Positions 12,705 through 41,191 are shown, counted from the stretch's first letter. The stretch: DNA of 64,000 nucleotides from Gnetum montanum (GCA_015680685.1 MNCI01000614.1:469655-533654), one strand, 5' to 3'. Made by a program: numbers and translations. Notes: a model not told the origin generated them from the letters alone.

Positions 12705-12721
12705 CCCTCCCTCTAGCATCA
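12705..12721 (-). promoter_or_regulatory. Primer binding site (tRNA-Asn-like) of element E
   Basis: TGATGCTAGAGGGAGGG vs TGGCGCTAGAAGGAGGG, which is the complement of the plant tRNA-Asn 3' end as recalled from memory; 6 nt from the LTR end. Confidence 0.7.
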
Positions 12722-12727
12722 AAAAAC

Positions 12728-15722: not shown

Positions 15723-15799
15723 AGATTTTTTGAAAAAAGTTTCTATTTTTGGCTAGACCCCACACTATACTTTCCCAAGAATAACACAAAAATCCATGA

Positions 15800-18700
15800 C
15801 TACACTGGGAAAAGTGGACTTCTAGATGGACTATGCTAGAGTTAACACTTCAAGAAGCCATGAACAGCTCACACTTCCATTTCACATCCATCCTATCTCT
15901 CCAAAACCTAATTTGGATGCTCTGAAATCCAAAATATGGTGAAATATGAAAGGTCTCATGATTGCACTAATAGGGGATCAAGGACTACGTTGGGCTAGCA
16001 TAGTCCCAAATACTGCTAGCATAGTCCATGATGGGATGGACTTTTAGAGGTCCATCCAACCTCTAAAAGCCTTCAAAACAATCATCCAACCTTACCAAAC
16101 CTTGTCTAGAACCCTTAATAGCATTGGGACTTGATTGAAGGCAATTCAACTATGAGAAAAATCAAGCTTCTTCACTAACTACATTGAGGGAAGTGAAGGA
16201 CTATGCTAGGCAAGCATAGTCCTAGCCACTACCTAGCATAGTCCAACATCATACCTTGCATCTTACAACTCCAAGCAACTAATCCAATCCATTCAACCCT
16301 CAATTAACCTTAAATCAACATACTATTTTCCCAAACCCTATTTTGAGCCTCCAACATGCTTGAGACATGGTCGACGATCGTAGATGATGTCACTTTTTCC
16401 TTTTTCATCATGACTACATTAGGGAGAACTAGGGACTATGCTAAGCCAACATAGTCCCAAGATTCCATAGACAATAGACACCATACTAACCCTTACACAC
16501 CTCCAAATTTACCTTTTTAAGCCTCCACACCCTGCCAAGACCCCTAGCAACCCCAAACTAATAGTCAATCAATCAAAAACCTTAAGAAAATCAACAAAAC
16601 TATGTTCCCACATGGGATTATGCTAGGAACTAGAAGTATTACATAGTGCTATCATAGTCCCAGTGACTAGCCAATGTAGTCCACTCAAAAGACCAAAAAA
16701 AAACTCATCATTTATGAACTACAACTAAGCTTCCAACAACACTAGAGCATAAAACTTGATCAACTCTCACTACTTCCTCCACTTATGGCATTGGGACATG
16801 GACTACACTAAGCTAATGTAGTCCCTACCTAGGGTCTAGCATTGTCCCATTGAGGCTACCATGAAATACCAAAAAACCATGAAACTTGACTCCTGTAAGC
16901 CCCAAAATCCTAAATTAGGCCTATTTAACCATGAATCCTACTCTTCAACCACATTTTGATAGTTTTTACGAAGACTATGATAAGAGGGAAAGGGGACTAC
17001 ACTAGGCTAGCGTACTCCCTATCCAAGGCCTAGAATAGTCCCATGGAAGTTGTCCAAACACACCAAAAATCATGAGATTTGACTTTGACAAAACTCCAAT
17101 ATCCAATCTGAGCCAATTTCACTCCAAAAACTTGCATTTTCTACCAATTCCAATTATCCTATACTGACTATGCTAGATTGAACTTGGACTACATTGGGCT
17201 AATGTAGTCCCCTCTAAAGCCCAATGTTTCCTCTAAAAATTGATGTAAAATTGTTAAGAAAGACCTAAAACTACCTTCAATCAACCCTAAAGCCTTGTCC
17301 CAACCAATTTAGTGTTAAATCAGACCATCTTTCATTCTTTCTTACCACCCCAAACTAGACTACATTGGATGAAGATGGGAACTACACTAGGTCAGGATAG
17401 TTTCTTCCCATGGCTAGTGTAGTCCCTTCAAAACTATGCAAGAACCATTACAAATGACCTAAGACTCATGTTAACAAGCCTGGGAAGCCTGCCCAAGCCT
17501 CTGTGACCTCTAAAATAGCATTTTTTCATAATTTTAATAACAACCACTTGACTACACTAGAGGAAGAAGAGGACTACACTAGGCCAGCATAGTTCATGCT
17601 TGGACCTAGTGTAGTTCTTATCAAGTTGATAGAATCCATTAGAAACCATGAAAATTAACCTCTAGAAAATGCTAGAACTTCACTCAGAGCTATCTGCTAG
17701 TAGATCTTGCAATTTTTCATCATTCTAACCACTACAAACTTGGACTACACTAGGGAAGAAGGAGATTATGCTGGGCTAGCATAGTTCCTCTTCATGGTGG
17801 CATAGTCTTGTTCAAAAATTATAAAAATTATCAAAGACTTCTCATATCGACACCTAAGAATCCTATAATGCCATTTGAAGTTTCTTCATCATAGAACCCA
17901 TAATTTTTTCAATGATTTTAACCTTCTAGATTGAGCCCATGTTGAAGGAAAATAGGACTACATTGGGCCAGCATAGTCCCTCTCTAGGCCCATCATAGTC
18001 CTTCAAAATTGATGGAATTTATCAAAAATGAATACAACTACTATAAAAAAACCTTGTCCAAGCCCATGTAGCTTCAAAACCTTGTTTCTTACCATTTCTA
18101 GTCAATTCCACCATGACTACATTGAAGTAGAGTGAGCACTATGCTAGGCTAGTTTAGTCCCTCTCTAGGCCTAGCATAGTACCTCAAAATTACATGAAAA
18201 ATTTGCCAAATTTCCCCAAGTTCATAGCAAAAGGCCCCAAAACCTTGCCAAAACTTCCATCAACCATTTGAATTCCCATTAATCACTCCAAGCTTGAATT
18301 ACATTGGAAAGAGATAGGACTATGCTAGGCCAATGTAGTCCTAGCCTAGGTTTAACATAGTCCACATTTTGACTCCCAAAACAAGCCAAATAAAACCTAG
18401 AAAACACCTCTGTTGACTACAGAACCTTCCCAAAACACAATAAGACTCCTAAACCTTTCATTTGAGTTGAAATACATCATTTCTAGACTTCTACATCATG
18501 ACTATACTAAGGAGGAACTGCAACTATATTGGGCAAATGTAGTCCCTTCCAATCCATAGAGTAGTCCACATTGAACTACATAAGATGAATTAAAAAACAT
18601 CAAATCCCCTCTTGATGAAACCTACAGCATCATTGGATCCTATCTAGTAATGGGGCCTAATGTTTCTCATCATTTCACACCCTTGCAATCTTACTATGCA

Positions 18701-19750
18701 AAGAATGAGTTGGGACTATGCTAGGCCAACATAGTCCACTTCCAAGGCCAACATAGTCCACTTCTAGGACCAACTTAGTCTCCATATACTTGCCAAAACA
18801 TTTTCCCATATTGCTCAAGGTTCCCTTGTATGAGTCCTAGGGATTACTGGAGTTAATTTTGATTGAAAAACTTGCTTGTTTCATATTTTTCTAAACTCAC
18901 TATGCTAACAAGAGGTTAGGACTATGCTAGGCTAGTGTAGCCTCTATCCAAGCCTAGCGTAGTCCACTTTAGACACTCCAAAAATCATCAAAAATATCTT
19001 AGAACTCATATTTTTGAAGTCTTGGAACACTACTAGAGTTGATTTAAACACTAAAACTCAATTTCTACAACTCTAGGAATGCAAGTACATTGAAGAGGAC
19101 TAGGACTATGTTAGGCCAACATAGTCACTACCCAAGCCCAACATAGTCCATTCCAAGATAGTCAAAATACCTCTAGAACTACCAAAATCAACTCCAAAAA
19201 GATTTAGAACCTAACTAGAGCATGCCTAGACCCTGGAACTTTGGGAAATGAGCCAAAATCCACTCTTGCTCAACCTTTTCTCATCTAGAATCCTTAATTA
19301 CACTGGGTATGGCATGCCTAGTGTAGTCCCGTGGTATCTATCCATCCAAGATGCAAACAAGCATAAAAATTATCAATTTCTACACTAAAACCATTGCTAG
19401 TGATACTAGTGATCCTAGAAGCCCATTAGGATAGTCAATCAAGTCACAAAACTGACCAAAATCCATTTTCCTAACTATACTATGTTGAGGAAGCTAGAGA
19501 CTACACTACAGCAGCGTAGTCTTTCTTGGAAGGGAAAATGTAGCAACAAAATCTAGCAATAAACAACTTAGAATGATTTAAAATTTAACTAGGGTGACCG
19601 TAACCTTATCCCCATGGCTCCCAAGTGCATATTTCACTTTCTTTCAGCCTTGGAAACCTAATAACCTTAGTCATTTCTTGTGACTACATTGGAGCATGCT
19701 AGCCTGTGTGGTCACCTCTTAGAAGAAGATTTTTAGGCTTTTGGAAAGCC
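15800..19750. repeat. Degenerate tandem array, ~190-bp period, palindromic core GGACTACGCTGG-G-CCAGCGTAGTCC
   Basis: Cores at about 15982, 16198, 16432, 16800, 16994, 17186, 17379, 17571, 17762, 17955, 18136, 18317, 18520, 18712, 18919 and 19103, most with flanking half-sites. Confidence 0.85.
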
Positions 19751-19939
19751 AAAATGATGTCAAAAGGTGCTAATCTTCAATAACTACCTCTTGAGCTAGC
19801 TATTTAGACCATTAAAATCCAAAAAATGATCATACCAAGCCTTGGGATATGCCTTTGAAGGTCAACTATGCTGGAGGTAGTCAAGATTATGTCAAGATCC
19901 AGATTATCAAGATCTTGAGCTTGAGAGTCTTGTCAACCA

Positions 19940-20530
19940 CATAGCCTCAATTTAAAAACCTCTAGAGTGGCCTAAAACCCTTATTAAAACCTTTGACTTG
20001 AGGCTGGTGACATAACTAAAGATTCTCTAACTAAGGTTCCTCTCATAACACAGTGATGAGGAGAAAATCCTTAAACTAAGTCCCTCACTGAAATCTCAAC
20101 AAGTTTAAGAAATCACCAAGGTTCTACAATATAACATTAAGACCTTTTCCTAGTCATATGAAGATATGCCAGGCTTAGATCCATGTCTAGTCCAAGACAA
20201 CATACTTGATCCTAGCATTAAACTAGTTAAGCAAAAAGAATGCAAGATTAGACCAAACCTAACTTGATAGTTCATGATGAGATCACAAAGCTATACTAAG
20301 CTAATTTCATTAGATTTGTTGACTATAAAAAATGGGTTTCCAACATGCTTTTAGTCCCTAATAAAAATTAGAGTATCCACATTTGTATTAATTTCCAAGA
20401 CCTAAATAAGGTAACCATCAAGAATGATTTTCCTTTTCCTAATATTAACCAACTTATCGATACTACAACTGGACATGCCTTACTGTCCTTTATGGATGGG
20501 TTGTCAGAATAAAACTAGATTAGGATCAAC
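19940..20530 (+). pseudogene. pol: Element C pol, N-terminal RT part
   Basis: Homologous to 4060-4645 and 32900-33488 (DMPGLDP, DLNKVTIKNDFP, SFMDG). Confidence 0.9.
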
Positions 20531-22224
20531 TGAAACACCCTAAAAATTCAAGGTCATCCTTGCTTCGCTAGGCTCTTGCAGTCTATGCAGCACTATGGTA
20601 ATTCATCAGGAAGAGAATGTTCTGAGTCTAGGCCGAACAGTTTGGAAAATTTTCTACTTTGAGCATGGACAAGTTCTGTACCAACCTACCCTCCCACCAA
20701 AGTATCCTAAATAGGTGGAAGCCTACTTAGAAATAGTGTGCAGAATCAGCAACAGCATTCTGGATGTGCAAGAAACAGTTCGGCAAGTTTTCTAAGTCAC
20801 GAAGCCTGCTACGCTATGTAGCGTAGCAAGCTTAAGAAGATGATGGCGGAATGAAGTGCTATGCTACGTGACGTTATACAACGTAGCATAACAATGACTT
20901 CACTACCCACTCCCCTCACCAAATTTTGAGTTCTAAAGTGATGTCCGTTTCTGTCAGGAAGTGGCGAACCATGTCTACTACTACGCTACGCTGAGCTACA
21001 TGGCACAGCAAGGCATAGCAATCTTGTGGAAGAGATAGAAGGTAGTTAGAAAGGCGAAGTCAATGGAGTCCAAAAGACTTGCATCGTAGGAGACAAGGTT
21101 TGCAAATCAGCAAAGATTTTGTGACTAAGTAAAGTTGCCATGCTATGCTATGCTATGTAGCATAGCATAGCATAGCAATCATGTGACATATATTAGAACG
21201 CATGACAAAGTGCTACGCTATGCCAAGCATGCTACATCACAAAGCATAGCAAGGCATACAGGTGGTTGTGCGACATCAATGCACTCCACCTAATCAGACT
21301 GTTGGCACATGTCTTCAAATGCTGATGATGTAATTATGGCATAGTAGGATTGTACTTATTGTATATAATTTTGCATCACAATGGTCTTGTAGGTCCAATG
21401 GTCACAAACGACATGAGTGGTGCCAGCAAGAAAATCAAGGCCTGAGGCACGTAACATTCAAACCACCCCTTTCGCACACCCTCGGTCCTATAAATACCCT
21501 GGAAAATAGCATGCAAAGAGGTCCACAATTTTTAAAAGTTGGCAATTTCAAAAGAGTTCGCATGTTTCTTGAAGCAGATAGCTTCCAAGTGGTGGGAACT
21601 TTGAAATTTTGAAACAAATATTTCCCCTCTCTCTAGCATTGTAATATCAAAGTCATCTATCTAACACTGTAAATAGTGAGTCTCTCTTGGCTGGCGTGAG
21701 GTCCCCATATCTATTCTACCACCTTGGTAGAACCCTGCATTGTTTGTACACGAGTCCGCATCCAAGCGCATAGCTCTTTTTTCTCGGCACACCTTGGTTA
21801 CCCTCAGTATTTCTACACTCCGTCACACTATGCAGCCGATTGTATCCACCCTAACCAAGTGAGTTTGTAGCTTTGGAGTGGTGCATGTTTCTAACTACAC
21901 TTTACTTTATCTCTCATTTTTCATCTCACTTTTGCATTATTTTCTATCTTATTCTCTTTTAAGCATTACTTCATATTACTATCGCATTTTTACAGTTTCT
22001 CTCGTGCTTCATTTACCCTTAAGCATTATCTTGCATTTCGCATTATTTACGTTGCAAAAGGCTATATTGACGCCAATGTAGGTCCCTGTCTGATTGATCA
22101 GATAGTTCAGGGCACTCTGTGTCTACACACACCCAACACGGCCCTCCCGTGGATACGGGGTTCGAACTGTCGTGCCCGTTGACCCCTGATGTTCTTCCAG
22201 CCGCTGACATTTTTGGTCGCTACA
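20531..22224 (+). repeat. 5' LTR of element B (1694 bp)
   Basis: TGAAACACCC...GGTCGCTACA; collinear with 37529-39229; TATAAATA at ~21489. Confidence 0.95.
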
Positions 22225-22230
22225 GTCTTC

Positions 22231-22247
22231 TAGTGCTAGAAGGAGGG
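22231..22247 (+). promoter_or_regulatory. Primer binding site (tRNA-Asn-like) of element B
   Basis: TAGTGCTAGAAGGAGGG, two transitions away from TGGCGCTAGAAGGAGGG, 6 nt after the LTR. Confidence 0.8.
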
Positions 22248-22350
22248 CCTTTTGGTGCTTTTTTCACGTGCCATGTTAGTTCTGTGAGCCTTCTGCACCA
22301 TGATACACATAAGTGTAAATGTGACACCCTCCTGTGGTTGTTTGCTCTTT

Positions 22351-23146
22351 GTGTGGTATAGACCGATCACCTCGACAGCTCCTCGGGAGCCCTACAGAAC
22401 ATAAGGCCTCCGATTGTCAGCTAACTAGCTTATTTTATGGTTGTCTTGCATGCGTTCTATACCTCATCTCGTGTGGTACAGATTGGTCACTTTGACGGTC
22501 CCTCCAGGATCCCGCGAGACACAAAGCCTTCTTGATCGCTAGTTAGTTCGCCTGTCTTACGGTTTTCTTGCATGCGTTCTGGACCCCACCTCGAGTGGAA
22601 CAAACCGGTTGCTTCGACGGTTCCTTAGGGATCCTACAAGACGTAAGGCCTTCTAGTTTAGCTTGCTCACCTTACAGTAGCCTCGCAAGACTTCTACACC
22701 CAAATATGCATTAGTGTAGACTCGACACCATCTACAGTTGTTTACGCATCATACGGTGTAGATCGATCGCCCTGACGGTCCCTTCGGGACCCTGTGGGAC
22801 ATAAAGCCTTCTGACAACAAGTTAACTTGTCTTCCCTTTTACAGAAGTCTTGCATGCACTCTGCACCCTAGCTAGCACAGGCATAAATGTCACACCCTTC
22901 TGCAATTGTTTGCGCCTTGTGTGGTGCAGGTCGGTCACCTCAACGGTCCCTTCAGGATCCTGCGAGACATAAAGTCTTCTTAATCGCTTGTCAACTGAAC
23001 TTGCCTTACGGTAGTCTTGCACGTGCTCTGTACCTCATCGTGCACTGGCATAAATGTGACATCCTTCATGGTTTTTTAGGCTTTGTGTGGTATAGATCGG
23101 TCACCTCGACGGTTCCTCTGGAATCCGGCAAGACGTAAAGCCACCT
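22351..23146 (+). repeat. Six ~60-nt hairpin-containing repeats in the 5'UTR of B (spacing ~120-165 bp)
   Basis: Units at about 22351, 22471, 22594, 22753, 22920 and 23085: GTGGTACAG.CCGGTCACCTCGACG-GTCCCTTCGGGA.C-CTGCGAGACGTAAAGCC. Confidence 0.8.
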
Positions 23147-23216: not shown

Positions 23217-26200
23217 ATGGCTTTTACCACCACCACTATTAACACCTTCAACGCGGGGGTACCATTCATGGTTCAAGGCATGACTCATGCTAGACAACCA
23301 CTGAACCCCACGATGGAAGCACGTCAATCTCTCAGAATCCAAAACAGGGGACTTGAGGGATTAGCCCAGCAACACGAACATTATAGTTTCCTTTTCGCGA
23401 AGCCATAGGCTAATCTGCCATTGGATTTACAAGAGCTCGAGGAAAAACGTAGCTTCAAGGTCACTTATTGTAATGGGAAGGAATTCGTTCCTACCCTTAG
23501 CATTCCTTTTCTTTTAACACAAGCGTACCAAAGTCTACTGGACCAATTGATCTAATTGGCTAGACTTAGGGAGCAATCGGACACCGTGTCCAACTAGGAT
23601 GACACCTTTCAAGATGGATAGGAGGAGCTCAATTCCAAATTTGATGAGGGAGGTCAAGTCAACCCCATTCTTGTCCCACCTACCTAGTCCTTTTGGTCCA
23701 ACCCGCTGTCTGTCATCGCTCCCTTTGTCATCACGCCAATGCTTCAGCAACCTACCACCATAACTGCAATGGGTAGCCATGCTACATACTTGGCGTATCA
23801 TCACCCTTATTCCTCAGCTACGCTCACAACAACTGTGCCACTGCAAACTATTTATCAGTGTATCCCTAAGGCATGCAACATTCCTATCATAGCATCCCTA
23901 CCCCATGTCCATACTGTACCTACTTCGCAACTGCACATAACTGCTATGCCAACTCCTACGTATGCATCTGTTCCATCCACTATGGTGGGCCCAGGCCTAT
24001 CCACGTGATGGACCCCGTTCACCACTTTGTCTATTCTACAACCATTGAAAAATGTCTTATTATGTTCACCCTTAGGCTTACCCAACCCTGCAAATGGTAC
24101 ATCCTGGCATGGGACCATAGTCTGTCCCGTCGGTAACCCAAACGGCCTATCTAGCGACTCAACTTGCTATTACCGCTCCGACAATGCCACCCAGTAGGTG
24201 GTGGACAATGCAAGAAGCACCTTTAGCGGGGGCGGCCCCAACGGCATCGCTGATGGGTCAACCCACCACTGCCACCATGCTGCATGTAGGAATTACCTCT
24301 ATAGTCCCTCAGCCATCTACAACGTCGCCAGGTCTGGACCAAGCGTTTCAGCTCATCCAAACCCTAACTGAGGAAATAAAATGCCTCAAAGCTGTTGGGT
24401 CCTACACGGTAGAAGTCATGGACTTTTATCAGGACAGCCCCATCAAGCCTACAATCCCTACTTTGGTATTACCACCTGGGATGTCTCTCCCACACTTCAC
24501 AAAGTACGATGGGAAAGGGGATCCCGATACCCATCTCGTCACTTTCCAGTCAGAGTCTTTGCTATTTCAACAATGGCTGGATATGATCATTCACATCTTT
24601 GCCATGTCCCTAGTAGGGAAAGCCCTAGATTGGTGTCACATGTTTCCATGTTCATCCATTTCAACTTTGGAAGAACTCTTGACCCAATTTGTGACACGCT
24701 TCAAAGAGAACTTGAAGCCAGAAACCATGCCGGATCAATTGATGAGCGTGAAACAAGACCCACTAGAACCAATCCAAAAATTCATTCAACATTGGAGCAC
24801 TACCCTTAACAAAATCCATGAGCTCATTGCAGAGGCTCACTTGTTAGTCATCTTTAAGGGTGCAGTGAATGACTTCATCAAGTCCAAATTGTATTATCTT
24901 GCTCCATGCTCTCTTAGCCAAGCTTTTGCTCAGACGAAAAGCATACAAGATGCTGCCGAGGCAAGCAAAGACCCGGCCTACATCTCTTACAAGAACAAAT
25001 TTACAAAAAAGGACAAGGGTAAGGCCCCAAAAACCATAGTGGCCATTGTGGCAACTGAGGCTAAGCCCAAACCTAGCAATAGCAGAAGCAAGAATAACAA
25101 GAAATCGGCCACACTTGGGGCTAACTCTACGCCTAAACTGGGCCAAGCATCACAACCTACCACACCTGCGCTTGAGACATCTGCATACACTAAACCCAAC
25201 TTTGAGCACAAATATTGTTCTAAATACATCCCACTACCTCTCAAACCTTCAAAACTTCTAAAGCAATTGTTGGCAGTGAGATACCTCCAATGCAAGCAGA
25301 TGTCAGAGGAAGGAAACATGAGACATCAACGCTATTACGAGCTCCTTAGGAATCCATCTTTGGCCTTGCCCAATGAGCCTCCAGTTCCTAGGGGTTTCAG
25401 GCTAGATAGGTTTTGTGACTACCACCAACTATGTGGTCACACCACATATTATTGTCTGTCATTGCAGGATGACATCCAAATATTAATCGACCTAGGAAAG
25501 CTGGTGCTGGATGAAAGCAACCCAGTATGCCCTAAAAATCAATCTATGCATGTCTACATAGATCCCCTCAAAGCTAATAATGTCGATTACGTAATCAATG
25601 CCATCAATATTGACAATGATCCCAAGCCAACCTTCCATCCATTTGTGATTCGTGTGCCTCAGCATAGTGCACCAATACCACTAGTGGTTGGTCCAAGCTC
25701 ATAGTCGCCCTTCATCCTAAAAGTCCCATCATGGGCATCTACCTCTGCACCACCTATTGGTGAGGTTACACAACCCCATCAGTTAACACCTCTAGCTCCA
25801 TTCATCATCAGGGGGCCAACGTCTTCAAAAATCCCCATCTCATGCAACAACATTAAATAGCCTCCTCGCCCCACAAGGTGAGAAGCCCACTTGGCGGGCA
25901 AGACGTCAAAGGGAAGTACCATCGAGGGTATCTCCAAGCCTATGCCTTTGCCCCTCATATTTACACCTTTATCACCAAAGATGAAGGTCAACATGATTAC
26001 ATAACCTACTTTACCTTGTCAACAAGGGTCTGAACCTAGGTCTGAGGTCGTCTCTCCTTGAGAGATTCATCTTCTAGGATGAATCAAAGAGGAGGAAAGT
26101 GTCAAACAGGCGGGCGACCAAGATTTCTTAGACGCCCTTACCTAGGTCAGGCAAGCCCTAAAGTAGAAAAATGCTACATTGAGCTTGTACAACCTAGTCA

Positions 26201-27039
26201 TGGCATCTCTACCTCACTGAGAGGCTCTAGTTCACATGTTAACGATGATCCCAGTCGACGGGAACATGCCAACAGAAGAGGGAGCGATCCACTCAGTAAT
26301 GCTTCCCTCTGTACTCGTAGAGTCTGCAACACCTTAATTAATTTTTAGTAATGACACCATTAGGGAAGAGCCCAAAGGATTTCAAGTGACTATGGTGCCT
26401 CTCTTTGTCACAATTTGGGTCAGCCAACACCGGATCTAAAGGGTACACATTGATGATGGGGCTTCCACGAACATCATTCGCTTCCCTATTGTAGACAAGT
26501 TGGGATTGGTCAACCAGATCAAACCAACAATGACATCGTGTCTAAGGTCATTCAATGGGGCATGCGTCGTGGTGAAGGGCACGTTTCACATAAACTTCGT
26601 AATAGGGGACTAGTTCCCCACAGACGCAAAGTTCATCATAGTCAAAGAAATGCCTGAGTCTAACTTGATATTGGGGAGATCATGGTTAGCACAACTTAGG
26701 GCTGTCTCCTCAGCTATACACCAGGAAACCCACTTACCATACGCAGGTAGAGAGATGGTAATCCATGGTGATGAAATGGCAATGCAAGAAATCAGCAACA
26801 TAGGCATGGAACAGGGTTTAGAAGTTACAACCTTCGAGGATGAAGCACCTGTTCATGCATGCATTAATCATGTGATGGGAGGATCGATCCAGCGAACCGA
26901 CCCTCAAATCGAAAACGCGTGGGTTGATTTTCACTTCCAAATGAAGGACAATGATATGAACGAGGCCCCTAGTGAAACACCTCGACCTTATGTTCCGATC
27001 AACCCAATACGGGTCAAGAAGCAGTTGCGCAAAGCGTAG
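23217..27039 (+). pseudogene. gag: gag-protease of element B (longest open piece 24184-25704, 506 aa)
   Basis: FTKYDGKGDPDTHL, SLVGKALDW, Tat-type zinc knuckle CDYHQLCGHTTYYC; protease VHIDDGASTNII (~26443) and NLILGRSWL; scattered stops. Confidence 0.92.
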
Positions 27040-27419
27040 CAGCCCTACGGCTTCCACCCGATTGCTATCCTTGTACATTTGTCATGTCCTTGTCTTATTA
27101 GTATGCCTCCCATTCGGCATGCTACGCTATGGCCCAAAATGGCCTAAAACTAGCATCGCTACCTTATTTCTTTGTTAATGAACTACCTCTTTTGGCATAG
27201 GCCCGAAACGATCTAAAATTAGCACTATCGCTTATTGCTTTAATTTGTAGCACAATGGCCCGAAATGGCCCAAAATTTGCACTAGCCCAAGATGGCCTAA
27301 GACTAGCATATGAAAGCATGAAAACTTTTCCTTTCTGAAGTTTTTCATTTCATTCAAAATTTTGGCCTATTGGCAATGATGCAAAATTTTTAAAAAAGAG
27401 AGAGAGGAAAATCCCATGC

Positions 27420-30400
27420 TGTCATGGGTTGTTTCCAACGCCTTCACTGTTTGCCTCTACTTCATCTACTTGTGCATCACCCACTTCTGCATTACCTTCT
27501 ACTGATCCTGCATGCCCCCTCCCCGCAGGTCTCACACCCTCATCTAGAGCTTGCACTGCACGAATGAAGTAGTTAGCTAGGGAAACAAATGCGGTAAATG
27601 CAAGCTACAACATAACATGAAAGAGACTAACCTGAGAGGAGCCTGTGCTAGTCTCAAGGGGTATCTGGTCTAGACCAAGCCTAGGGTGATGCCAAATCTC
27701 CTCTACCAAAATATCCATCCAACGGCCATCGCTGGGTTCAGCATTAGTTGCAGCAGCCTTCTCCCTTTCCATGGTTATCCATGTTAGAGGTTCTAGGGAA
27801 AGGGAAGTAGTTGCAGTCTCTCCTGTAGGAAGGCTCACCCTCAAATCAGGAGATTCCATGACCTCCAGCCACTTTTAAAACTTAGCATAGACCTCAGAAG
27901 TACCGATGGCCTTCACGAATGCTTCATACGTGAATGCCTCCATAGCAGCATCTCTATACAGTTTTTGATGGGTCTCATTCTCCAACTTATACATATGTTT
28001 ATGGTCTCTCTGGGTTTTCCGCCATTCAAAAACCTTAGCACTGATGTCTTTCATGTCTTGGCACTTCTGGACCAGCAAATCCATCTGCCTTTGCTATTCG
28101 ACTATCTCATGGGTGGATTCAACGTTCTGATGAACGATGGTCGAAAACCTAGCATAGTCATCTACATCCCTCTGCCAATCGATTGGGTCAGGGTTGCAGT
28201 TTATAAGAAAAGCATTCCTGAACCTAAGATTCTCCACCTTGGTGGCCAGGTCAACCTCTCTCTGCTCAGCCCTTTGGACCTATTTCCATAGGTCCTCATT
28301 GGCGGGCCTATATTTCCACAGAGAGCGTGCCGAGTACAAGACATACTTATAAGCCTCATCAAATGTTCGATGAGACACCACAGTCACGTCAGGCGAGAGT
28401 ATGGGCACCGCGCCAACCTTCATAGGTCGTTCCGCATCCCACTTGAGCCAAGAGGCCATTTAACGCATAGAGCATAGTGACCACGTTAGCATAGCATAAT
28501 CAACAAACTCGAAAGCTTCAACATAGCAACATAAGGGCAATTAATGCTGATACTTACCTACACTAGGATCCGCATGTTGAAGGTGCCTATTCATATCATC
28601 AACGAGTCCCTTCATGAACATAAACTTGTCAGGGACATCGGCCCATGACTCTGTACAAAGCAGAGGAGGTCTCGTGATGTTAGCAGTAACACCTATTACA
28701 CAATTAAGCATGTCAGCAATAGTCAAAATGGACTGTGATGAGGTAGACATCTCACAAACTCACCAGTGCCTGACTATGATCCTTCTTCTTGCCAAGGCAA
28801 GATGACAGTGGTAGCCATGGTAGAGGGCCCTGCCAAGTCCATGCAAGTCCCTTCCTCATGTACGGGTGCCTTTCCTTTAAGAAGACCAGCATCTTTTTTA
28901 TTTTGGGAGGGAACCTCTTTGTTGGTAGGAAGAGGCTCCCTAATGACAAGATCCCCTACCCTGGAGATAGGAGCTCCATTATTCCTACCCAGGGCCCTTT
29001 ACTCCGAAACTGGGGCCTCCACATATTTATTTTTCACCCCCGTCCTGAGGGCTGACACTTCCTCATCGCCTTCTTCTTCATCTTCTTCTTCCTCTACTAA
29101 GCAATAAGGGCATGTTTGTGTCGATTCAAAATAAGCTAGTATAAAATAGGTGCTACGCTACACTGCATTGCCTAGCACAGCATAGCATAGCAAACTATAC
29201 CAAAATAAGCATTATAAAAAAATTCTTACCAATGGGGGGTTACATCCACCACAGCTTGAGCCGCAGTCTCCGCCCCTCCTCTTCACGAGAGCTTTCCCTG
29301 GCTGGGGGAGGTCTCTTCATTTGCAGCTCCGTGGGCACAGTCTCAGCTATGAGACGTTCACCCTGCATCATGTTAATGGTTATGACAAGGGGTGTCTCTC
29401 CCACACTGTCCTAGCCACAAGTGCTACAAACTGCCAAACCTTTAGTCATTACAGACAACAACTCCCTGACCATTTTCGGAGGATCCTGGGCCTGCATAGT
29501 TTGAAGGACCTACCAAATCTAGGGCTTGGGAACCTGGTCACAGTCTAGCAGGGACCAAACTCCGTCCTCCTAGACCACCAGGAACTCCACAAAGCACGTT
29601 AAACAGCCTATGTAGAAGGCATAGTGTATGTTAGAGCAGGACTCTGTTTGCTCACAAAGTCTCAAAATATCTACCTACAAACCACTACATAGGAATTCGG
29701 CCCAGTTGTAATGGGCCCCCTCCTCCATGACTTCCCGCATTACCTAGGCCTGCTCAAGCCCTAGGACCTTCCCTTGGGTGAGTAGTTGAGGGAATGCATG
29801 GGCATGAAAGACCAAGTATATCCCCACTATAGGGCCATCCTTAAGCTTTTCCATGGGGAACCCTTTTCGCTCCTTGGAGAGTCTCAACCACTCCTCGATA
29901 TGCTACTTCTGCAGGGTCAACTCCTGTTTGCCCTTCAACACTATGGGGGCATTATCAGTAGGAATGCCAAACAGATCCGCAAACAGCTAGTTGTCGATGT
30001 TAATGACCACCTACATGCCCTACATGTATGTGCGAAAACGACTCGCCTTCCCAGAAAATGAGTTGACCAGGAAAAGCATCTCAGTAGTAGAGACGTATAG
30101 GTTCAGCACCATAAATAGATCCATAAGCCCTACCCTTCAGACTTTCATGAGTAAAGAATCTGGGGCCCCTCGTTCTAACCAGCTCTGGCACACCGTCACT
30201 TCACCGTATTTGAAATAGATGCTTGCTCCTTGCCTCTTGGCAGTTACCACCATCACCTCACAAGGCTTCTTCGCCCCTACAAAAAAATATTTCCACAAAA
30301 CATACTTAGCCTAACAATGCAGAGAATGCAAAAATTATGAAAACACTTGAGCATGTGGCACCTACCTTTTGATCCACCAAGTCTATACAGTAATGGGAAT

Positions 30401-31816
30401 AGTGGGAGTTCAACTGCCAAAACTGCTTCAAGCGTGACCTATTTGAAAGGTTCTCTCCACTCCTTGTCTAGCCAACCCTTCACCCTAAACTAATCATAGA
30501 AAGGGGTGAGCATGTGTAGGTAAGTATGGTATTCTCCCCCACAATGACCAATCACACCAGCCCTCAGGCTCTTGGTAGAAGCAAATTCTTGTAGGGCTAG
30601 CAGTTTCATGGCCAGCATATCTGGTTGGTTATGAACCCCGTCATCATCAATGTAGAACCTAGTGACAAACGCACATCATTAGCATTCAGCCAGGTATAGC
30701 CGGCATCACACAACAAAGCAAAACAAAGATGCAAAACTCACCCGCTAGGATAATAGATGGTCCCCTGTGGATTCTGAAAGAGCATCTCCATGTGACATGC
30801 AAGGTACAATGTGTTATATGGGTGATAGCACTAGTATTCTGGCATATCCCAGATCCAGGCTCAGCACCTCAACCCTGTTGGTTGTTGTCTAGACTGTCCT
30901 CCCTACCCACTTATGGTCACCTCATTAGAAAGGTATCTCAGGATGCCCTGATTCGCCCCTGGTAGCATGGCCTCTATTATGCTAGATGCCTGCGTCTTGT
31001 CTAAGGAAGACCAAACGATCACACTAAAGTGGTTGAGAAGGAATTGCAAGAAGTCTCGTGCCCCTTCCCTAAACCAAAATACTTGGTCTCCCACACGTAT
31101 CAGGGGAGGAGGAACGTTGGCCATAGGCCTGCTCACATGGCACAAGACCCCTCCAAGGTCCAAAACGATCAACCTAGACCTTGGCCCTACCCTGCACAAT
31201 GTAATCAACAAATGCTGGCATCACACTCAAACACAATACACGTGCAACATAGCAACGTCTAGTAGTCTATAAATATAGCATAGCATAACCCTCTACCCAT
31301 ACATAGCGTAGCAAAGGTGTGAGAGCCTAGCATAGCGAAAACATGCAAATAGCTTAGCGTAGCAGTAAAATAATTGGCAACATGCCCAAACAAAACACAA
31401 ATCACGATGCCACATCGCACATGAACAAACCCTTACAAGGGTTTTACATTACAACGTGCCAAGGCCAAACAACTTGCAACTTCCCTAGCCCCGTAGGCAT
31501 GACAATCGCAGCAATAGCAGCCCCAGCGGCCTTGCAACGAAACCTTTGCACATCAGCCACGATCGAAAAAGGGGCCACGGTGATGCAAAAGCTAAAACAA
31601 CGTGGCCATAGAAAACACAGATGGCAAAACAAATAGGACATAAAACCAGAGCAAAAAACAGCAAAAGGCATAAAATTAAAAGAGCGAAGGAGGCATGAAA
31701 ACTTACTTGATCAACGATGTGCTCTCTCGCATCAGAATGCACGCTTGTGGTGCATGTCTCAAAGCCTTTTTCACCTCCTCGACCTTCGCAAGAACCAGAT
31801 GAGTCTTAGGAGCCAT
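27420..31816 (-). pseudogene. Antisense multi-exon cargo gene of B: NIF/FCP1-like HAD domain, PMD-like domain, acidic stretch and coiled-coil-like tail
   Basis: Exons 31816-31707, 31191-30742, 30658-30366, 30276-29230, 29096-28764, 28692-28558, ~28457-27631, and a likely last exon ~27556-27422. The first five introns are GT-AG and phase-compatible. Lesions in exons 1-6 are point nonsense codons. Confidence 0.85.
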
Positions 31817-31966
31817 GGCCCTCCTTGCAGATGTACAACCTCCACTATAGAAATTCATCCCACTAGTCGATCAACACAACTGCTCTGCGCTCTGAAATCA
31901 CTGAATGCTTCGATGAGGGTTTTGTGCTCTTACGGTGGAAACAATGAAATTACCTAGGCTTAATCC

Positions 31967-31976
31967 CTATTTATAG
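31967..31976 (-). promoter_or_regulatory. TATA box of the antisense gene in B
   Basis: CTATAAATAG about 150 nt upstream of GCCATGGCT (ATG at 31816); equivalent boxes at 3493 (A) and 15715 (C). Confidence 0.7.
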
Positions 31977-32161
31977 CCGTAAGGCCAAGATGGGGAAACT
32001 TACCTCTTTCTCTCTTCGAGTATTGCAGAGTGCATTATGCAGCGTAGCATGCTTGCCACGACATCATGACACTATTAGCATTTCATTCTTAACATGTTTG
32101 AAGCCAACTACTTGCCTTTCCGAAGACAAAGAAAAAATATAATAATATTTTTTTTCAATTA

Positions 32162-32333
32162 AGGGTCCGAAAAGACCTTAAACTAACAAGCCTAGCATAG
32201 TTGTGCTCCTTAGGGTCTGAAAAGACCTTAAACTAACAAGCCTAGCATAGTTGCACTCCTCAAGGTCCGAAAAGACCTTAAACTAACAAGCCTAGCATAG
32301 TTGCGCTCCTCAGGGTCCGAAAAGACCCTTAAA
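32162..32333 (+). repeat. 50-bp tandem repeat, ~3.4 copies
   Basis: AGGGTCCGAAAAGACCTTAAACTAACAAGCCTAGCATAGTTG.GCTCCT. starting at 32162, 32212, 32262 and 32312. Confidence 0.95.
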
Positions 32334-32846
32334 TAGTAGTTTCGACCCGTAACGTTCACAGTCCACGATGATGTTAAACTAACCATATCCTTACACTAGT
32401 AGTCGCCTTATCCTCTTTCACATAGGCAGTATCACCTTTCCTAATAGTTTCACAATTCCATTTTCACACTGGCAATTCGATACTCCTTATACTTGCAATT
32501 TCCTTTTTTTTTATTTTGCATGTCGCAATATGGTAGTCCAAGATGACACTAAACTAGTGGTTTGGCATTGGCATATCAACAAGCACACGTTCCACTAGTA
32601 ACTCTGCACTCTCGCACCTTGGCGGTCTGCCACGACCTTAAAATAGCAAACTTTTAATCTTTACATTGCCTCACTTAGCAAGTCGCATCTTAGTGTTGCG
32701 TTGCAGATTTGCGTTTCACATAATCTCTGATGACCCTTACCCAGGCTTTCATCTTATGATGGCAGGTCAAGCAAGAGATGGGAATCCATCGTGCCCTTTC
32801 CACGCCTTTAATGTTAGAAGGGCCACAAGGCAAGCTCGCGAGATAG

Positions 32847-35800
32847 TTGAACCCCAACATGATCGACTGGGGGTTGACTATGATTAACACTATAGCAGCC
32901 TTAGAAGAATCCCCAGATTGGCCCAGACACCTAGTCCAAGCCCTAGATTTAGAGGCCGAGGATGTAACCAATGATCCTCTTGTCGAGATACTTGTGACCA
33001 CGTCAAAGAGGGAGGTAAAAACATTAAGACTTAGCTCCCTCCTAGACACACAAATACATGAAGGCATAGTTAAAACTCTGTAGGATCACATAGATGTTTT
33101 TGCAAGGTCGTACAGCGACATGTCGGGTCTGGATCCATGGCTAATTCAGCATAACATCATCCTAGACCCACATGTAAAGGTAGTCAAGAAAAAGGTGTGT
33201 AAGATTAAGCTGGAAATCACACTAGCCATGAGGGATGAAATCACTAAGCTGTACTGAGCAAGTTTCATCCGCACGGTCGACTATTCAGAGTGGATATTCA
33301 ACATCATTGTAGTTTCAAAGAAAACAAGAGGGATACAAATTTGTATAGACTTCTGAGACTTGAACAAGGTAATGATCAAAGACAACTTCCCACTCTCGAG
33401 CATTGATCAACTCATTGACACCACGATTGGTCATGCTTTGCTATCCTTCATGGATGGCTTTTCTGGATACAACCAAATCCCCATCAACCTAGAGCACTAG
33501 TTGTTAACAACCTTCATGACTCCATGGGGAACCTTCTGCTATACCATGATGCCTTTTGGGCTCAAGAATGCTGGAGCAACCTACCAGCGAGCCATGACCT
33601 ACATTTTCAGTGACTATATCCTAGAAACGTTAAACGATTACGTAGATGATATAGCGGTTAAGTCCAAAGAGGTAGCTGATCACCCACATGATCTAGGGGT
33701 AGTCCTCAAGTGCTGCCAAATGCACAACTTACATCTCAATCCCAAGAAGTGTGTCTTTGGAATAAAGACTGGACGCATGTTAGGGTTCATAGTATCGGAG
33801 GCTGGAATACGGGTGGACCCCGACAACATCAAGGCCATCGTCAATCTAGTGCCCCCCACAAATATTAAGGAGTTACGCAGTTTATAAGGCAGGGTACAAT
33901 TCATTCGAAGGTTCATAGCCAAGTTGAGCGACAAGTTACACACCATGCAACATCTTCTAAAGAAGGGGGTTGACTTTGAATGGACAACCCAGTGTCAACA
34001 AGCCTTCGACGACCTGAAGCAGGAACTCTTGCACCTTCCAACGGTGCACTCGCCACAAAGGGACAAGCCTTTCTTCATGTACCTTACCATCTTCGATGCA
34101 TCCATAGTGGCACTACTATGTCAAAAGTGGGATGATGGTTCTGAGATACCGGTGTACTACTTAAGCCATGCACTAATAGCATATGAGGAAAAATACAACG
34201 AAGTGGAGAGGAATTGCCTAGCCTTAGTATTTTCACTAAAAAAGTGGTGGCATTACCTGTTCCATAGCACAACCAACATCATTTGCAAAAGCAACATACT
34301 CCGGGCTATCACTAACAACCTGTACAAAAGTAGCAAGATAGCCCGATGGAAGGCAATAACCATGGAGTTTGACCTATGCTATGTAAGTCAATCATCAACA
34401 AAGGGTCAAGCCATAGCAACCCAACTTACAGCCTCGTTAGTCGACGACCAGGCCACCATAGACCCAGAATTCCCGAACAAATACTTTACCCATGTCACCA
34501 TTGTCCCATTGCATTTCGAGGCTACCTTACATTTCGACGGCACCTCAACCATGTGAGGAAGTAGCACCACTACCACAATCACATTCCCCTCTAGGGAAAT
34601 GTACCCATCCTCTTATCATTTTGCATTACCTTGCACCAACAACGTGGAAGAATATGAGGGGCTGCTCAGAGGCCTCTTAATTGCCTAAGCATTGCATGTA
34701 CAACATCTGGAAATTCGAGGAGATTCACAACTAGTCGTGAATCAAATCACCGAAGTCTACACCTACAAGGCTACGCACCTACAACCCTAATACGACCTAG
34801 AAAAAATCCTACTCAACCAATTTGTAACCATTGATGTGAAACACATGTCACATAACGAGAACATCGTAGCAGATGCCCTAGCTACGCTCATGTTAAACAT
34901 CCCATCACATTCTTTGTGAAACCTACCAACCATGATCACAGAATGTATCGAGCCCATCGCTTAGGCAGAACACGTGGCCTCTGTCAATGTTGTGGATACC
35001 CTGGAGTGGTACGATAACATTAAAGCTTATTTACAGCATGGTGAACCCCCAAGTGGATTGACGTTGGCTCAGAGAGATGCAATCCGTAAGTGTGCTCGAC
35101 AATACATGCTCATGGGAAATGACGCCCTGTGTTGATGATCCTACAATGGGATATTGCTAGCATGCGTGGGTGGAGAGCAGGCACAAAAGGTAGTTAATGA
35201 GGTTCATGAAGGGCTGTGCGGTGGACACATAGCACCCATGGCTATGGTAGCAAAAATCAAATTCCTAGGGTAATATTGGCCTTACATGGAATGTGACTAC
35301 CTGTCAAAAGTCAAGATGTGCGACACATGCCAAAGATATGCAAATCTCATACACGTAGCACCTACAGACCTACATCCAACGCAAATCATGTGGCCCTTCC
35401 AACGATGGGGACTAGACCTCATAGGGCCTATCACACCTAAGTCCTCCATAGGGCATAGCTTCATTATCACTGCCACAGAGTATTTTACCAAGTGGGTGGA
35501 GGCTATTCCCCTGAGGAAAATGACGTCCCAACAAATCTGCCATTTCATCCTTGATAACATAGTAACTAGGTTTGGGCTTCCGATGACCATTATGACTGAC
35601 AATGGCCCACAGTTCAGTCATACGGAGACTCGAACCTTCTGTAGTAATCTAGGCATTAAACAATCATTTTCTTCCCCTTATTATCCGCAGATGAATGGGC
35701 AAGCGAAGGCTACAAATAAGTCCATCATCAACTTGCTGAAGCATATGCTTAACAGCAGCAAGAGGTGGTGGCACGAGCAAATACTCTATGTCCTCTTGGC

Positions 35801-36248
35801 CTACTGAACGACATGCTAAACTGTAACAAGTAAGATCCCTTATAGTCTTGTTTATGGATCTAAAGTAGTATTTCCTCTTGAGTTGCAGGTACCCTCACTC
35901 CGGATGATCCTATATGACGTCGTGAATGAAGCTTGAAACAACGAGTTGCAAACCATCAACCTCGGCCTAGTGGAGGAAGAACACGTGTAGATGCTAAGAC
36001 ACATCGAGCACTACCAGAGTGAACAACAGCAGAAGCACCATGCAGACCCGCATCGATGGCTAGTGCAAAAGGAATACCTTGTCCTCAAGGCCGTTTGTGA
36101 TCACATGAGTAAATTCTTAGCCAACTGGGAAGGACCTTACATGGTCACTAAAGCCTTTGAGAATGGAGCCTTCAAACTGGCGGACATGGACAACAACGAG
36201 GTCTTCAGCCTGGTGAACCACACGTACCTCAAGTTGTACTACATATGA
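32847..36248 (+). pseudogene. pol: pol of element B (RT, RNase H, archaeal-type RNase H, integrase)
   Basis: MPFGLKNAGATYQRAM, YVDD (~33639), LHFDG...TNNVEEYEGLL...IRGDSQLVVNQ, HEGLCGGH...CDTCQ, WGLDLIGP, TDNGPQF, NWEGPY; interrupted by nonsense codons. Confidence 0.97.
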
Positions 36249-36309: not shown

Positions 36310-36540
36310 GTAATGACAATAAACTAGCAACATCAAGCAGCATCCGGCACGACGTTAAACTAGCGGCAACCATTCGCTACGATGTAAAACTGGTACTATT
36401 AGTCCACTATGACTATAAAATGGCATTGCATGTCCACTACGATGTAAAAATGGCATGTACAGTGTACTGGGACCTTAAACCAGCACAGCGGTCCACTGGG
36501 ATCTTAAACCAGCATAGCGGTCTACCAAGACCTTAAACTA
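36310..36540 (+). repeat. ~30-bp degenerate tandem repeats after the integrase stop of B
   Basis: Units such as GTCCACTACGATGTAAAACTGGCA and GGACCTTAAACCAGCA. Confidence 0.75.
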
Positions 36541-37528: not shown

Positions 37529-39229
37529 TAAAACACCCTAAAATGTGAGGTCATCCTTGCTTCACTAGGCTCTTACAGTCTGCGCAGCACTATGGCATTT
37601 CATCAGGAAGAGAACGTTCTGAGTCCAAGCTGGCCAGTTCAGAAAATTTTCTACATTGAGCATGGACAGGTTCTGTACCATCCTGCCTACCCACCAAAGT
37701 AGCCTAAACAGCTGGCAACCTGCTCAGAAACAGTGTGCGGAATTGGCAGCAGCATTTTGGATGCGCAAGAAAAATTTCGGTAAGTTTTCTAAGTCATGAA
37801 GCCTACTGCGATACGCTATGCTATGTAGCATAGCAAGCTTCAGAAGACGATGGCAAAATGAAGTGCTACGCTACATGACGTCACACAGCGTAGCATGGCA
37901 ATGACTTCACTACCCACTCCCCTTACCCAATTTTGGATTTTGCAGTAATGTCTTTTCCATCAGGAAGCGGCGGACCATGTCTGCTGCTATGCTACGTTGA
38001 GCTACATGATGCAGTAAGGCATAGCAATCCTACAGAAGAGAGAGAAGGCAGTTCGAAAGGTAGAGTCAATGGAGTTCGCAAGACTTGCATCGCAAGAGAT
38101 AAGGTTTGCAAATCAGCAAAGCTTTCGTGACTAAGGTAAGTTTCTATGCTACGCTATGCTATGTAGCATAGCATAGCGTAGCAAGTATGTGACATATAGA
38201 AAAACGTGTGACAAAGTGCTACGCTACGTCAAGCATGCTACATCACAAAGCACAGCAAGGCATACAGGTGGTTTTGCAACATCAATGCACTCCACCTAAT
38301 TGGACCATTGGCACATGTCTCCAAATGATGATGGCACAATTACAGTGTAGTAGGATTGCAATTATTGCATACAAGTTCGCATCGCAATGGTCTTGTAGAT
38401 CCAATGGTCACAAACGACACGAGTGGTGCTAGCAAGACAACCAAGGCCTGAGGCACATAACATTCAAACCACCCCTTTTGCATGTCCTAGGTCCTACAAA
38501 TACCCCAGAAAATAGCATGCAAAGAGGTCTGTAATTTTTAAAAGTTGGAAATTTCAAAAGAGTTCGCATCTTTCTTGAAGTAGACAGCTTCCAAGTGGTG
38601 GGAACTTTGAAATTCTGAAACAAAGATTTCCCCTCTTTCTAGCATTGTAATATCAAAGTTATTTGTCTAACACTATAAACAACGACTCTCTCTCGGTTGG
38701 CATGAGGTACCTGTCTCCATTCTACCACCTTCATGAACCCCGCATTGTTTGTACATGAGTCCATTTCCAAGCGCATAGCTCTTTTTTCTCGGCATGCCTT
38801 GGTTACCCTTGGGATTTCTGCACTCCGTCACACTATGCAACCAATTGTATCCACCCTAACCAAGGGAGTTTGTAGCTTTGGAGCAGTGCATGTTTCGAGC
38901 CACACTTTACTTTATCTCTCATTTTTCATCTCATTTTTGCATTATTTTCTATCTTATTTACCTTTAAGCATTACTTCGTATTATTGTCGCATTTTTATAG
39001 TTTCTCCCCTGCTTCATTTACCCTTAAGCATTATCTTGCATTTCACATTATTTACATTGAAAAAGGCTATATTGACGCTGATGTAAGTCCCTGTCTGATC
39101 GACCAGACCATTCAAGGCACCCCATGTCCGCACACATCCAGCATGGCCCTCCCACGGATACAAGGTTGGAACTATCATGCCCGCTGACCCCTGGTGTTCT
39201 TTAAGCCACTGACATTTTCGGTCACTACA
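37529..39229 (+). repeat. 3' LTR of element B (1701 bp)
   Basis: TAAAACACCC (TG mutated)...GGTCACTACA followed by the TSD TCAAC; about 9 differences from the 5' LTR in the first 60 aligned nt, mostly transitions. Confidence 0.95.
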
Positions 39230-39234
39230 TCAAC

Positions 39235-41191
39235 CTTGAACACAAACTTAGCATAACATTCATGACCCCTTGGGGTACCTTTTGCCACACTATCATGCCC
39301 TTTGACCTTAAGAACACAAGAGCAACCTATGAATGAGCCATGACTTACATCTTCAGCAATTACATTTTAGGTTTACTTAAGGATTACATAGATGATATAG
39401 TTGTTATGTTCAAAATGGCCAATGACCATGCTAATGACCTAGACCTTGTGCTTAAATGATGCCTTAAGTTTTAACTTAGACTTAATCCTAAAAAGTGTGT
39501 GTTTGGTGTCAAAACAAGTAAAATTCTTGGCTTTGTGATATTAGAAGTAAGGATACATGTTGACCTTATTAAGGTTAAGGCCATATCCAACTTGGCATTA
39601 CCTACTAATGTTAAGGAGATTTGGAGACTATAAGGTACATTACAATTTATTCATAGGTTCATTGCTAGGCATATAGATAAATTACAACCCATGCAATGCT
39701 TGCTTAAGAAAGGAGTTCACTACAAGTGGATGGCCCAATGCCAAGAAGCCTTTGAAAACCTTACGTAAGAGTTGGCACAACTACCAACAATATATCCTTT
39801 GCAAAAGGGTAAATCATTTTATATCTACCTTTCCATCTATGACATGTCTATTGCCTTTCTACTCTATCAAAAACATGATGGTGGAGTAGAAATGTGAGTA
39901 TACTACCTTAGCCATGCATTAGTTTCCCATGAGACCTAATATTCTGAAGTGTAGAAATATTGTCTAGCACTAGTCTTCTCATTGAAGAAGTGAAGATACT
40001 ACCTCTTTAGGAGCCAAGCCAACGTCATTTGGAAAGATAACATACTTAGAGCCATAATGACTAATATTTATGAGAGTAGTCGTATAGCCTGATGAAAAGC
40101 CATAATAGCAAAGTTTAACCTTCATTAGTTTCTTAATCCTTAACAAAAGATCAAGCCATAGCTATACAACTTACCATTTCACCTGTTGATAATGAAGCAA
40201 CTATAAACCTTGAGTTTCCTAATGAACAATTCAAAAACATTAGCCAACTACCTGAGGATTATGAGGTAATCATGTACTTTTTTGGAGCTTCAACTACCCA
40301 TGAGGCTAGTGTCGCTACCATCATAACATTTCCATTTGGTGAAATCTAATCCTTTTCCTATCATTTTGAGTTTTCATGCACCAATAACATAGAAAAATAC
40401 AAGAGTTTGATCAAAGGAATGATGGTAGCTCATGACTTAGGAATTAAGCATTTGATAATTAAGGGTGATTCACAACTTATGGTCAACCAAATAACCAAGG
40501 TTTACACATGTAAATCCAAACATTTACAACCTTACTGAGACTTAGGGAAGCAATTGCTACAACCATTTATTGATGTGGATATCCAACACATACCTAAGAA
40601 TGAGAATGCCATAGTTGATGCAATTGCAATGTTAGCCCTTAGTGTTACACTAGATGTATTTAGTAAGTTTTCCACCTTAACCATGGACTATGCTACATCC
40701 ATCACGTAGAGTGCTGAGGATGCCTTTATAGCCATTATTCATACTACTTCTCCCAGGGAGTGCTATGATGATATCAAATTTTACCTTATGCATGGTGAAT
40801 CCTCACAAATCCTAACTACTACTCAAAAGGACATTGTATGTAAATGATCAAAGTAGTATGTCATCGTAGGTGATAACATATTATGTTGATGATCCTATGA
40901 TGTTGTATTGTTAAAGTGCTTTGGTAAAACTAAAGCTAGAATAGTCCTAGAGGAGGTTCATGTGGGTGTTTGTGGGGGACATATAGGACCTAGAGCCATG
41001 GTTAGTAAGATTAGATAGTTAATCTATTATTGGCCCCATATGAAATGGGACTACCTTCAAAAGGTTAAATGCTATGACACATGCCAATGACATAGCAAGC
41101 TCATAGACGTACCACCAACTAACTTGCATATCATTGAGATAACTTGGTCATTACAATGAGGAGGATTAGATATCATTAAACCTATAACACC
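39235..41191 (+). pseudogene. pol: Element C pol, continued (RT C-terminus, RH, aRH, integrase N-terminus)
   Basis: TFMTPWGTFC, YIDD (~39385), LNPKKCVFG, IKGDSQLMVNQ, HVGVCGGH, GLDIIKPITP; heavily mutated. Confidence 0.92.

Follow-up and report, generated by a model that had tools for sequence, protein, structure and literature searches.

Tat-type elements of the Ty3/gypsy long terminal repeat (LTR) retrotransposons include the closest described systems to the locus reported here. According to the sections of PMC6317226 available to us, Ogre elements carry an additional RNase H (aRH) between RNase H (RH) and the integrase (INT), while TatI, TatII and TatIII elements carry it between protease (PR) and reverse transcriptase (RT) or after INT. 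The gap that separates Gag-PR from RT-RH-INT in Ogre averages 274 bp (PMC6317226) and is, in the accessible text of two reports, an intron spliced out of a subset of transcripts (PMC6317226, PMC4408406). Antisense accessory reading frames (aORFs) have been described between pol and the 3′ LTR in the portions at hand of PMC7264820 and PMC11963269, and the orchid element Gypsy_Pa_2799 is a Tat-clade element with an open reading frame (ORF) for an active AlkB demethylase, as given in the available part of PMC9289625. Here, we analyzed a 64,000-nucleotide stretch of Gnetum montanum DNA (MNCI01000614.1:469655-533654; hereafter the window, whose coordinates we use throughout) and describe an antisense gene of eight exons situated between PR and RT of a Tat-type element that we call element A.

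We favor, with a probability of roughly 0.6, the reading that this is an inherited accessory gene of a lineage-specific Tat clade, lodged in what is likely an expanded Ogre-type intron and likely encoding a nuclear regulator based on an FCP1/SCP-like phosphatase domain that is probably inactive.

Architecture and relatives of element A

The gene lies on the minus strand of the PR-RT spacer and joins 8 exons, separated by 7 introns, into 1107 codons in one frame. Its TATA box (31967–31976, minus strand; TATAAATA at 31975) is the sole TATA-type match on the minus strand from 32700 to 31800 and stands 159 nt upstream of a GCCATGG start at 31816. The coding part of exon 1 (31707–31816, amino acids 1–36) closes with a phase-2 donor and has homologs in two further elements of the window, D and C. 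Exon 2 (30742–31191, amino acids 37–186) encodes the Pfam NIF domain PF03031 and is followed by exon 3 (30366–30658, amino acids 187–284) and by exon 4 (29230–30276, amino acids 285–633), a conserved orphan core with 35–43% identity to another element of the window, element B. Exon 5 (28764–29096, amino acids 634–744) is an acidic low-complexity linker that is not alignable to element B, exon 6 (28558–28692) covers amino acids 745–789, and exon 7 (27632–28455, amino acids 790–1064) is charged, likely helical, and 824 nt long in both A and B. Exon 8 (27420–27553) ends in a terminal TGA at 27424–27422.

A preliminary description of this DNA had proposed the same TATA box and GCCATGG start, a product of ~1100 amino acids, at least 7 exons and the introns 31706–31192, 30741–30659, 30365–30277, 29229–29097 and 28763–28693. 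We found each of these in the sequence, all five introns running from GT to AG and keeping the frame. Two more introns (28557–28456 and 27631–27554), each with a GT donor and a decayed, non-AG acceptor in the element A copy, bring the number of exons to eight. The minus strand of the 4.5-kb gene holds five GT[ATG]AGT hexamers, every one of which coincides with an intron donor, and T content is 38–45% in introns versus 16–29% in exons. The antisense eight-exon architecture between PR and RT is almost certainly real.

Element A itself is an 18.7-kb Tat-type Ty3/gypsy element composed of gag-PR, the 5.7-kb spacer and RT-RH-aRH-INT, all on the plus strand. Its 5′ LTR (20531–22224) has TG..CA ends and is preceded by a 5-bp target-site copy, TCAAC, at 20526–20530; its 3′ LTR (37529–39229) follows a polypurine tract and is itself followed by TCAAC. 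The LTR pair shares 85% identity (Kimura two-parameter distance 0.16). A decayed primer-binding site (22225–22247), presumably resembling the 3′ end of tRNA-Asn, has a similar counterpart in element B at about 42808; the primer site of Ogre is for tRNA-Arg. The Gag-PR frame (23218–27039; 1273 codons in a single frame) matches Retrotrans_gag and an aspartyl protease, and the RT-RH-aRH-INT frame (32742–36246, start approximate) shows the Tat "retroviral" domain order, with a second RNase H (RVT_3/RNase_H match) between RT_RNaseH and rve. The antisense gene is flanked by PR and RT domains that both have Pfam support. A gag-PR-RT-RH-INT order between LTRs and an additional RNase H, labeled aRH from its position and profile, are the features of the Tat clade. 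Within element A we also noted ~300 Pro/Thr-rich codons ahead of the capsid domain (23218–24120) and ~160-nt degenerate repeats in the 5′ leader (22335–23145); the element is inserted within the RT of element C.

The aRH of element A sits between RH and INT, at the Ogre position and not at either position seen in TatI, TatII and TatIII. Element A also shares with Ogre the two frames, Gag-PR and RT-RH-aRH-INT, parted by a non-coding gap, a 5-bp target-site duplication and large size. It differs in that this gap reaches 5.7 kb and accommodates the antisense gene with its eight exons, whereas the short Ogre gap has no gene described in the accessible text of PMC6317226; moreover, the extra ORF of Ogre has a plant mobile domain (PMD), for which the antisense gene gave no match. 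Like Retand, Grande gene23 and RIRE2 aORF-3R, element A has an antisense accessory gene with its own promoter, a type that most copies of a Tat family retain, according to the part of PMC7264820 at hand. Those genes, however, are situated between pol and the 3′ LTR and mostly encode TRP28 in the portion of PMC11963269 that was available, which makes no mention of introns, whereas the element A gene has seven introns, no TRP28 match and a place between PR and RT. When an ORF 3′ of INT, as in Retand, was sought in six frames, neither a family nor a conserved frame was found. Gypsy_Pa_2799 is comparable in that this member of the Tat clade fixed an enzyme domain of host type in an additional ORF, but in the accessible part of PMC9289625 the domain is a different one, the enzyme is active and Gag-Pol is a single ORF, while element A has a degenerate motif and a spliced, nested gene. 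The gymnosperm Tat structure 1 clusters (Tat J/K) share the aRH between RH and INT; the main texts of the two reports classify by aRH place only, and "antisense" and "intron" are absent from them (PMC10508981, PMC13468544).

The four RTs of the window form a clade of their own, with an SH-like approximate likelihood ratio test value of 100 and a branch of 1.03, separate from the rows of Ginkgo, Cryptomeria and angiosperms and outside the angiosperm Ogre clade, in a quick midpoint-rooted tree of 104 rows without labeled REXdb references. The best of 100 RT matches is at most 50% identical, the nearest named non-angiosperm rows being Ginkgo and Cryptomeria proteins at 46–47%. Two RT proteins labeled Serratia marcescens (P0011 and P0048) group with plant Tat sequences and are likely mislabeled or contaminating records. 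Profiles of the antisense gene matched none of 80 related Tat loci from metagenomes (best E 0.3). A protease lies upstream in 62 of these loci, and 16 of the 18 without a protease match have less than 2.1 kb of upstream DNA. Two loci with long upstream DNA and no PR match, L007 and L051, were considered as cassette carriers and rejected, as no such gene occurs there. Together with the short PR-RT gaps of these loci, the lack of matches indicates that the cassette is, as far as sampled, specific to the RT clade of the window.

A spliced antisense regulatory gene within a retroelement is also represented by HBZ of the animal retrovirus HTLV-1, which is driven by the 3′ LTR, has one intron and encodes an unrelated protein. 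As the preliminary description had suspected from its failure to recognize the position and architecture, we found neither an antisense gene with several introns between PR and RT nor an NIF domain in a gypsy element described in the literature searched, which consisted mostly of open-access main texts without supplements and did not cover Steinbauerova 2008 and 2011. Because defining features of both groups are lacking, we do not file element A under Ogre or Retand; judged by its sequence features, it resembles a Tat accessory gene combined with the Ogre split.

Inheritance, selection and decay

Element B carries homologous antisense exons 2–8 (47778–51353, minus strand; gag at 44213, pol at 52749–56281) in the equivalent location, with 6 introns at matching places. 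Elements A and B share 54% identity in pol, 49% in gag and 26–50% in the antisense gene, depending on the exon. Exon length modulo 3 is conserved in 4 of the 6 internal exons; acceptors 6 and 7, which are decayed in A, read AG in B, and donor 6, decayed in B, reads GT in A. Over 713 codons, dN/dS between A and B was 0.21 (bootstrap 0–0.34), compared with 0.52–1.16 in the five other frames; this is a rough value, since synonymous sites are nearly saturated (dS 2.8) and aligning the codons as protein in the frame under test favors a low ratio. Differences by codon position were 0.47/0.37/0.59. A ratio of this kind, well away from 1, points to purifying selection.

Traces of exon 1 are found in two more elements. 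In element D, a homolog (3238–3323, minus strand) with a phase-2 donor at 3237 and a TATA box at 3500 precedes an RT that begins at 3933, the remainder of the gene being lost at a gap of Ns. A weaker homolog in element C (15280–15374, minus strand) has a phase-2 donor at 15279 and a TATA box at 15722; the RT of this element (19896–20530 plus 39229–41216) is split by element A. These were the two best non-self loci among 146 tiles (scores 55 and 40, next 39), and both lie on the minus strand upstream of RT with the donor 19 residues past LxH, as in A. Family contigs covered all 30 bins of the region in DNA runs labeled organisms A, B and E (34,400, 36,761 and 16,651 contigs), and a run labeled organism F gave 2 contigs; these were 4 of 21 public DNA runs, and no contig spans the stretch, so linkage rests on the window. 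The element B homolog, the exon-1 traces in C and D and the family contigs bear out the earlier suggestion of stable inheritance over a one-off insertion, and we consider it highly probable from these comparisons that the gene has been inherited under selection.

The element A copy is nonetheless decayed. It has 22 in-frame stops in 1107 codons, whereas the two remaining frames have 72 and 86, and base shuffles of the gene gave 59.5 ± 7.3 stops, none of 1000 as low as 22. Stop counts in the same element are 23 in the 1273 codons of gag-PR and 17 in the 1117 codons of pol, and the antisense gene does not differ from pol (p = 0.42). This equal density suggests that the gene was most likely intact when element A inserted and decayed along with it afterwards. 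The gene had been called complete, which holds for its exon structure and fails for its coding capacity, since the copy is a pseudogene like its pol. Among 40 listed differences to the family contigs (689 further ones exist), 2 are located in stops and 1 affects the acceptor of intron 6; at these 3 sites element A differs from 90–100% of family depth, indicating that the two stops and the acceptor defect are private to it.

The spacer and its candidate splice sites

The PR-RT spacer (27040–32765, plus strand) splits Gag-PR and RT-RH-INT of element A into separate frames. The PR-to-RT distance is 6432 bp in element A and 6495 bp in element B, compared with 184–1699 bp (median 393) in the 62 related Tat loci with an upstream protease. 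Candidate sense splice sites in A are a weak donor at 27013 and acceptors before 32707 and 32766; T-rich AG acceptors lie just ahead of the RT frame in B and D and are weaker in A, a Met following in each, and phase-0 donor candidates occur at one aligned place in A and B. By analogy with Ogre, the 5.7-kb spacer is likely an expanded Ogre-type intron. That it occupies this known intron place, and that exon 2 encodes an NIF/FCP1-type phosphatase-like domain, had both escaped the preliminary description. Neither a PR-to-RT joint nor an exact intron-less DNA joint was among the 15 contig joints listed out of 411.

The main rival to the intron reading keeps the inherited gene and treats the spacer as no intron at all: a two-way promoter would drive a separate RT-RH-INT mRNA, and the AG before RT would close a short intron in the 5′ leader. 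We regard this as improbable, though better placed than the other alternatives. It gains from the head-to-head arrangement of the antisense gene and RT, about 0.8 kb apart, from the Met after the acceptor in A, B and D, from the weak sense donors after PR, and from RNA run X11, in which 5 of 6 molecules begin at 32661. That pile-up, however, consists of five molecules from an ill-described library, the phase-0 donor candidates of A and B align with each other, and splicing of the PR-RT gap has been demonstrated in Ogre, according to the available text of PMC6317226. First mates of X11 lie mainly on the plus strand, and a loose poly-T end coincides with a minus-strand tract rich in A, a pattern that suggests minus-strand RNA.

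The spacer is also bordered by a repeated 12-base motif, CTTAAACTAGCA, which occurs 33 times in the window at up to 2 mismatches (9 expected), 32 times on the plus strand. In several elements its plus-strand clusters (27144–27308, 32177–32648, 36318–36514, 47328–47588, 7491–7626 and 56402–56646) follow the PR stop, precede RT or follow INT, and so lie on both sides of the cassette; the motif could be an RNA signal. A contig joint from 27155 to 32214 links two of these arrays and omits 5058 bases, the whole cassette, in 2, 4 and 1 contigs of three runs. It reflects either cassette-less derivatives or a repeat artefact, its sides being 19–22 nt long.

The predicted protein, its origin and its role

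Exon 2 matches the Pfam NIF family PF03031 (FCP1/SCP-like phosphatase) with an E value of 5.9e-7 and 29.8 bits, against a curated cut-off of 21.8, over profile positions 2–79 of 160 in element A. The canonical catalytic motif of these enzymes is DxDx(T/V), or DxDxT, and its place reads DLGGV in A and ELVGI in B, both copies being decayed. This departure from DxDxT makes catalysis doubtful, and the domain is probably inactive. The opposite view, that the enzyme is active despite its non-canonical motif and removes phosphate from a silencing or transcription factor of the host, seems to us rather unlikely. The first Asp is present in A, both copies examined are decayed, and the AlkB of the orchid element sets a Tat-clade precedent for an active captured enzyme in the available text of PMC9289625; yet the second Asp and the Thr are absent from both copies, and B has Glu in first place.

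The rest of the protein is without recognizable relatives in the collections searched. Exon 4 gave none among 423 candidates, although remote families such as PMD or Transposase_32 may still be related, and no NIF alignment was found among 920 longer proteins. A profile of exons 4–8 found nothing in 1.84 billion protein representatives, at a sensitivity lowered by off-frame filler and X; a DNA search of metagenomes gave 0 of 209 stretches, and searches of PDB sequences and NCBIfam returned nothing credible. The plant mobile domain PF10536 gave no Pfam match in the exons, decayed queries reducing the sensitivity of this comparison. The highest 19-residue hydropathy of the predicted protein is 1.8. 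We also considered that exon 2 might contain a frameshift, but rejected this because element B aligns in one frame.

Somewhat less probable than an active phosphatase is that a DNA transposon, or a host gene that had been captured, gave rise to the cassette by inserting once in an ancestral element and being carried along, so that the selection would stem from an earlier life or from its own interests. Seven introns and a TATA promoter imply that it arrived in DNA form, the NIF domain is cellular in type, and the joint that skips the cassette could be taken in the same sense. However, we found no terminal inverted repeats around the gene in A or B and no transposase, PMD or Transposase_28 match, the joint connects copies of a single repeat motif and is possibly an artefact, and A and B share the insertion place with selection between them, which argues that selection acted inside the retroelement. 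That the working product is an antisense RNA for self-silencing or copy-number control, its frame incidental, is very improbable: such control is discussed for plant aORFs in the accessible part of PMC7264820 and minus-strand family reads are present, but a protein is required to explain the pattern across codon positions, the low dN/dS and the scarcity of stops.

Several observations weigh against our preferred reading of an inherited, protein-coding gene in an Ogre-type intron. Downstream of PR, neither A nor B has a strong sense donor, and the acceptor phase of element B disagrees with that of element D. Exons 5 and 6 are out of phase in element B, its exon 2 falls below the Pfam NIF threshold, and no significant exon 1 was found in it, a gap of Ns lying at that place. 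The exon-1 score of element C hardly exceeds background, and dS is close to saturation. The predicted structure of the NIF region was unusable (predicted local distance difference test score 43), with no fold match at E≤0.001. No splice joints appeared in four RNA runs of the same label, which with 337, 136, 212 and 78 reads, mostly less than 90% alike, and a mean depth below 9 are too thin to decide. Finally, the strand bias of X11 is 41.9 versus 5.8 in the gene and 49.6 versus 12.2 in the flanks, and so is not gene-specific.

In the mechanism that we propose, the Gag-PR frame closes at its stop and RT-RH-aRH-INT opens 5.7 kb later. As in Ogre, unspliced genomic RNA would be packaged and the whole cassette copied, while a spliced minority would join Gag-PR to RT. 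The seven introns, being oppositely oriented, would not be removable by splicing of the genomic RNA, a logic that is established. The TATA box, ATG and splice signals kept in several elements suggest that integrated DNA would yield a separate, spliced minus-strand mRNA, and the frame appears to have been under purifying selection during the divergence of A and B before decaying at the pol rate after insertion. The weakest step, doubtful when taken by itself, is that the NIF fold may serve as a non-catalytic binder of a phosphoprotein, for example the RNA polymerase II tail, and thereby aid transcription or RNA processing of the element in trans. The preliminary description had proposed that the product would probably be a chromatin or transcription modulator. 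More tentatively than the preferred reading, the whole clade may have made its Gag-Pol intron a cargo bay for a eukaryotic gene with a promoter and seven introns preserved by antisense orientation, the product combining a pseudo-phosphatase and a new domain family that would act on host RNA polymerase II or the silencing machinery.

Other parts of the window hold further repeats and elements. Upstream of its RT, element C extends for at least 5.4 kb (14470–19900), mainly as long degenerate repeats that include 12 copies of a 55-nt unit (16198–19157) between RT and the exon-1 homolog. In the nested region 9104–20530, a reverse-oriented element (gag 11055–11504, LTR-like 12728–14658) interrupts element C and abuts the 3′ LTR of element D; its LTR-like segment is 78–84% like 59180–61015. 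At 1081–1445 on the plus strand, GT-AG-like sites and AATAAA beside a gap of Ns possibly mark a small spliced transcript of another element.

In the accessible text of PMC6317226, REXdb scores extra ORFs as unspliced frames, and only on the 5′ or 3′ side of the polyprotein. A gene of several exons within the polyprotein region would therefore evade this screen, and more such genes may be hidden; a 2020 review calls for a search for antisense and spliced transcripts, in the part of PMC7264820 that was available. The element A gene supplies a new protein region without a database relative, and its recognizable domain makes the function of a Tat accessory gene testable. This very high-copy family demonstrates that a retroelement is able to carry intron-rich cargo until synonymous sites saturate.

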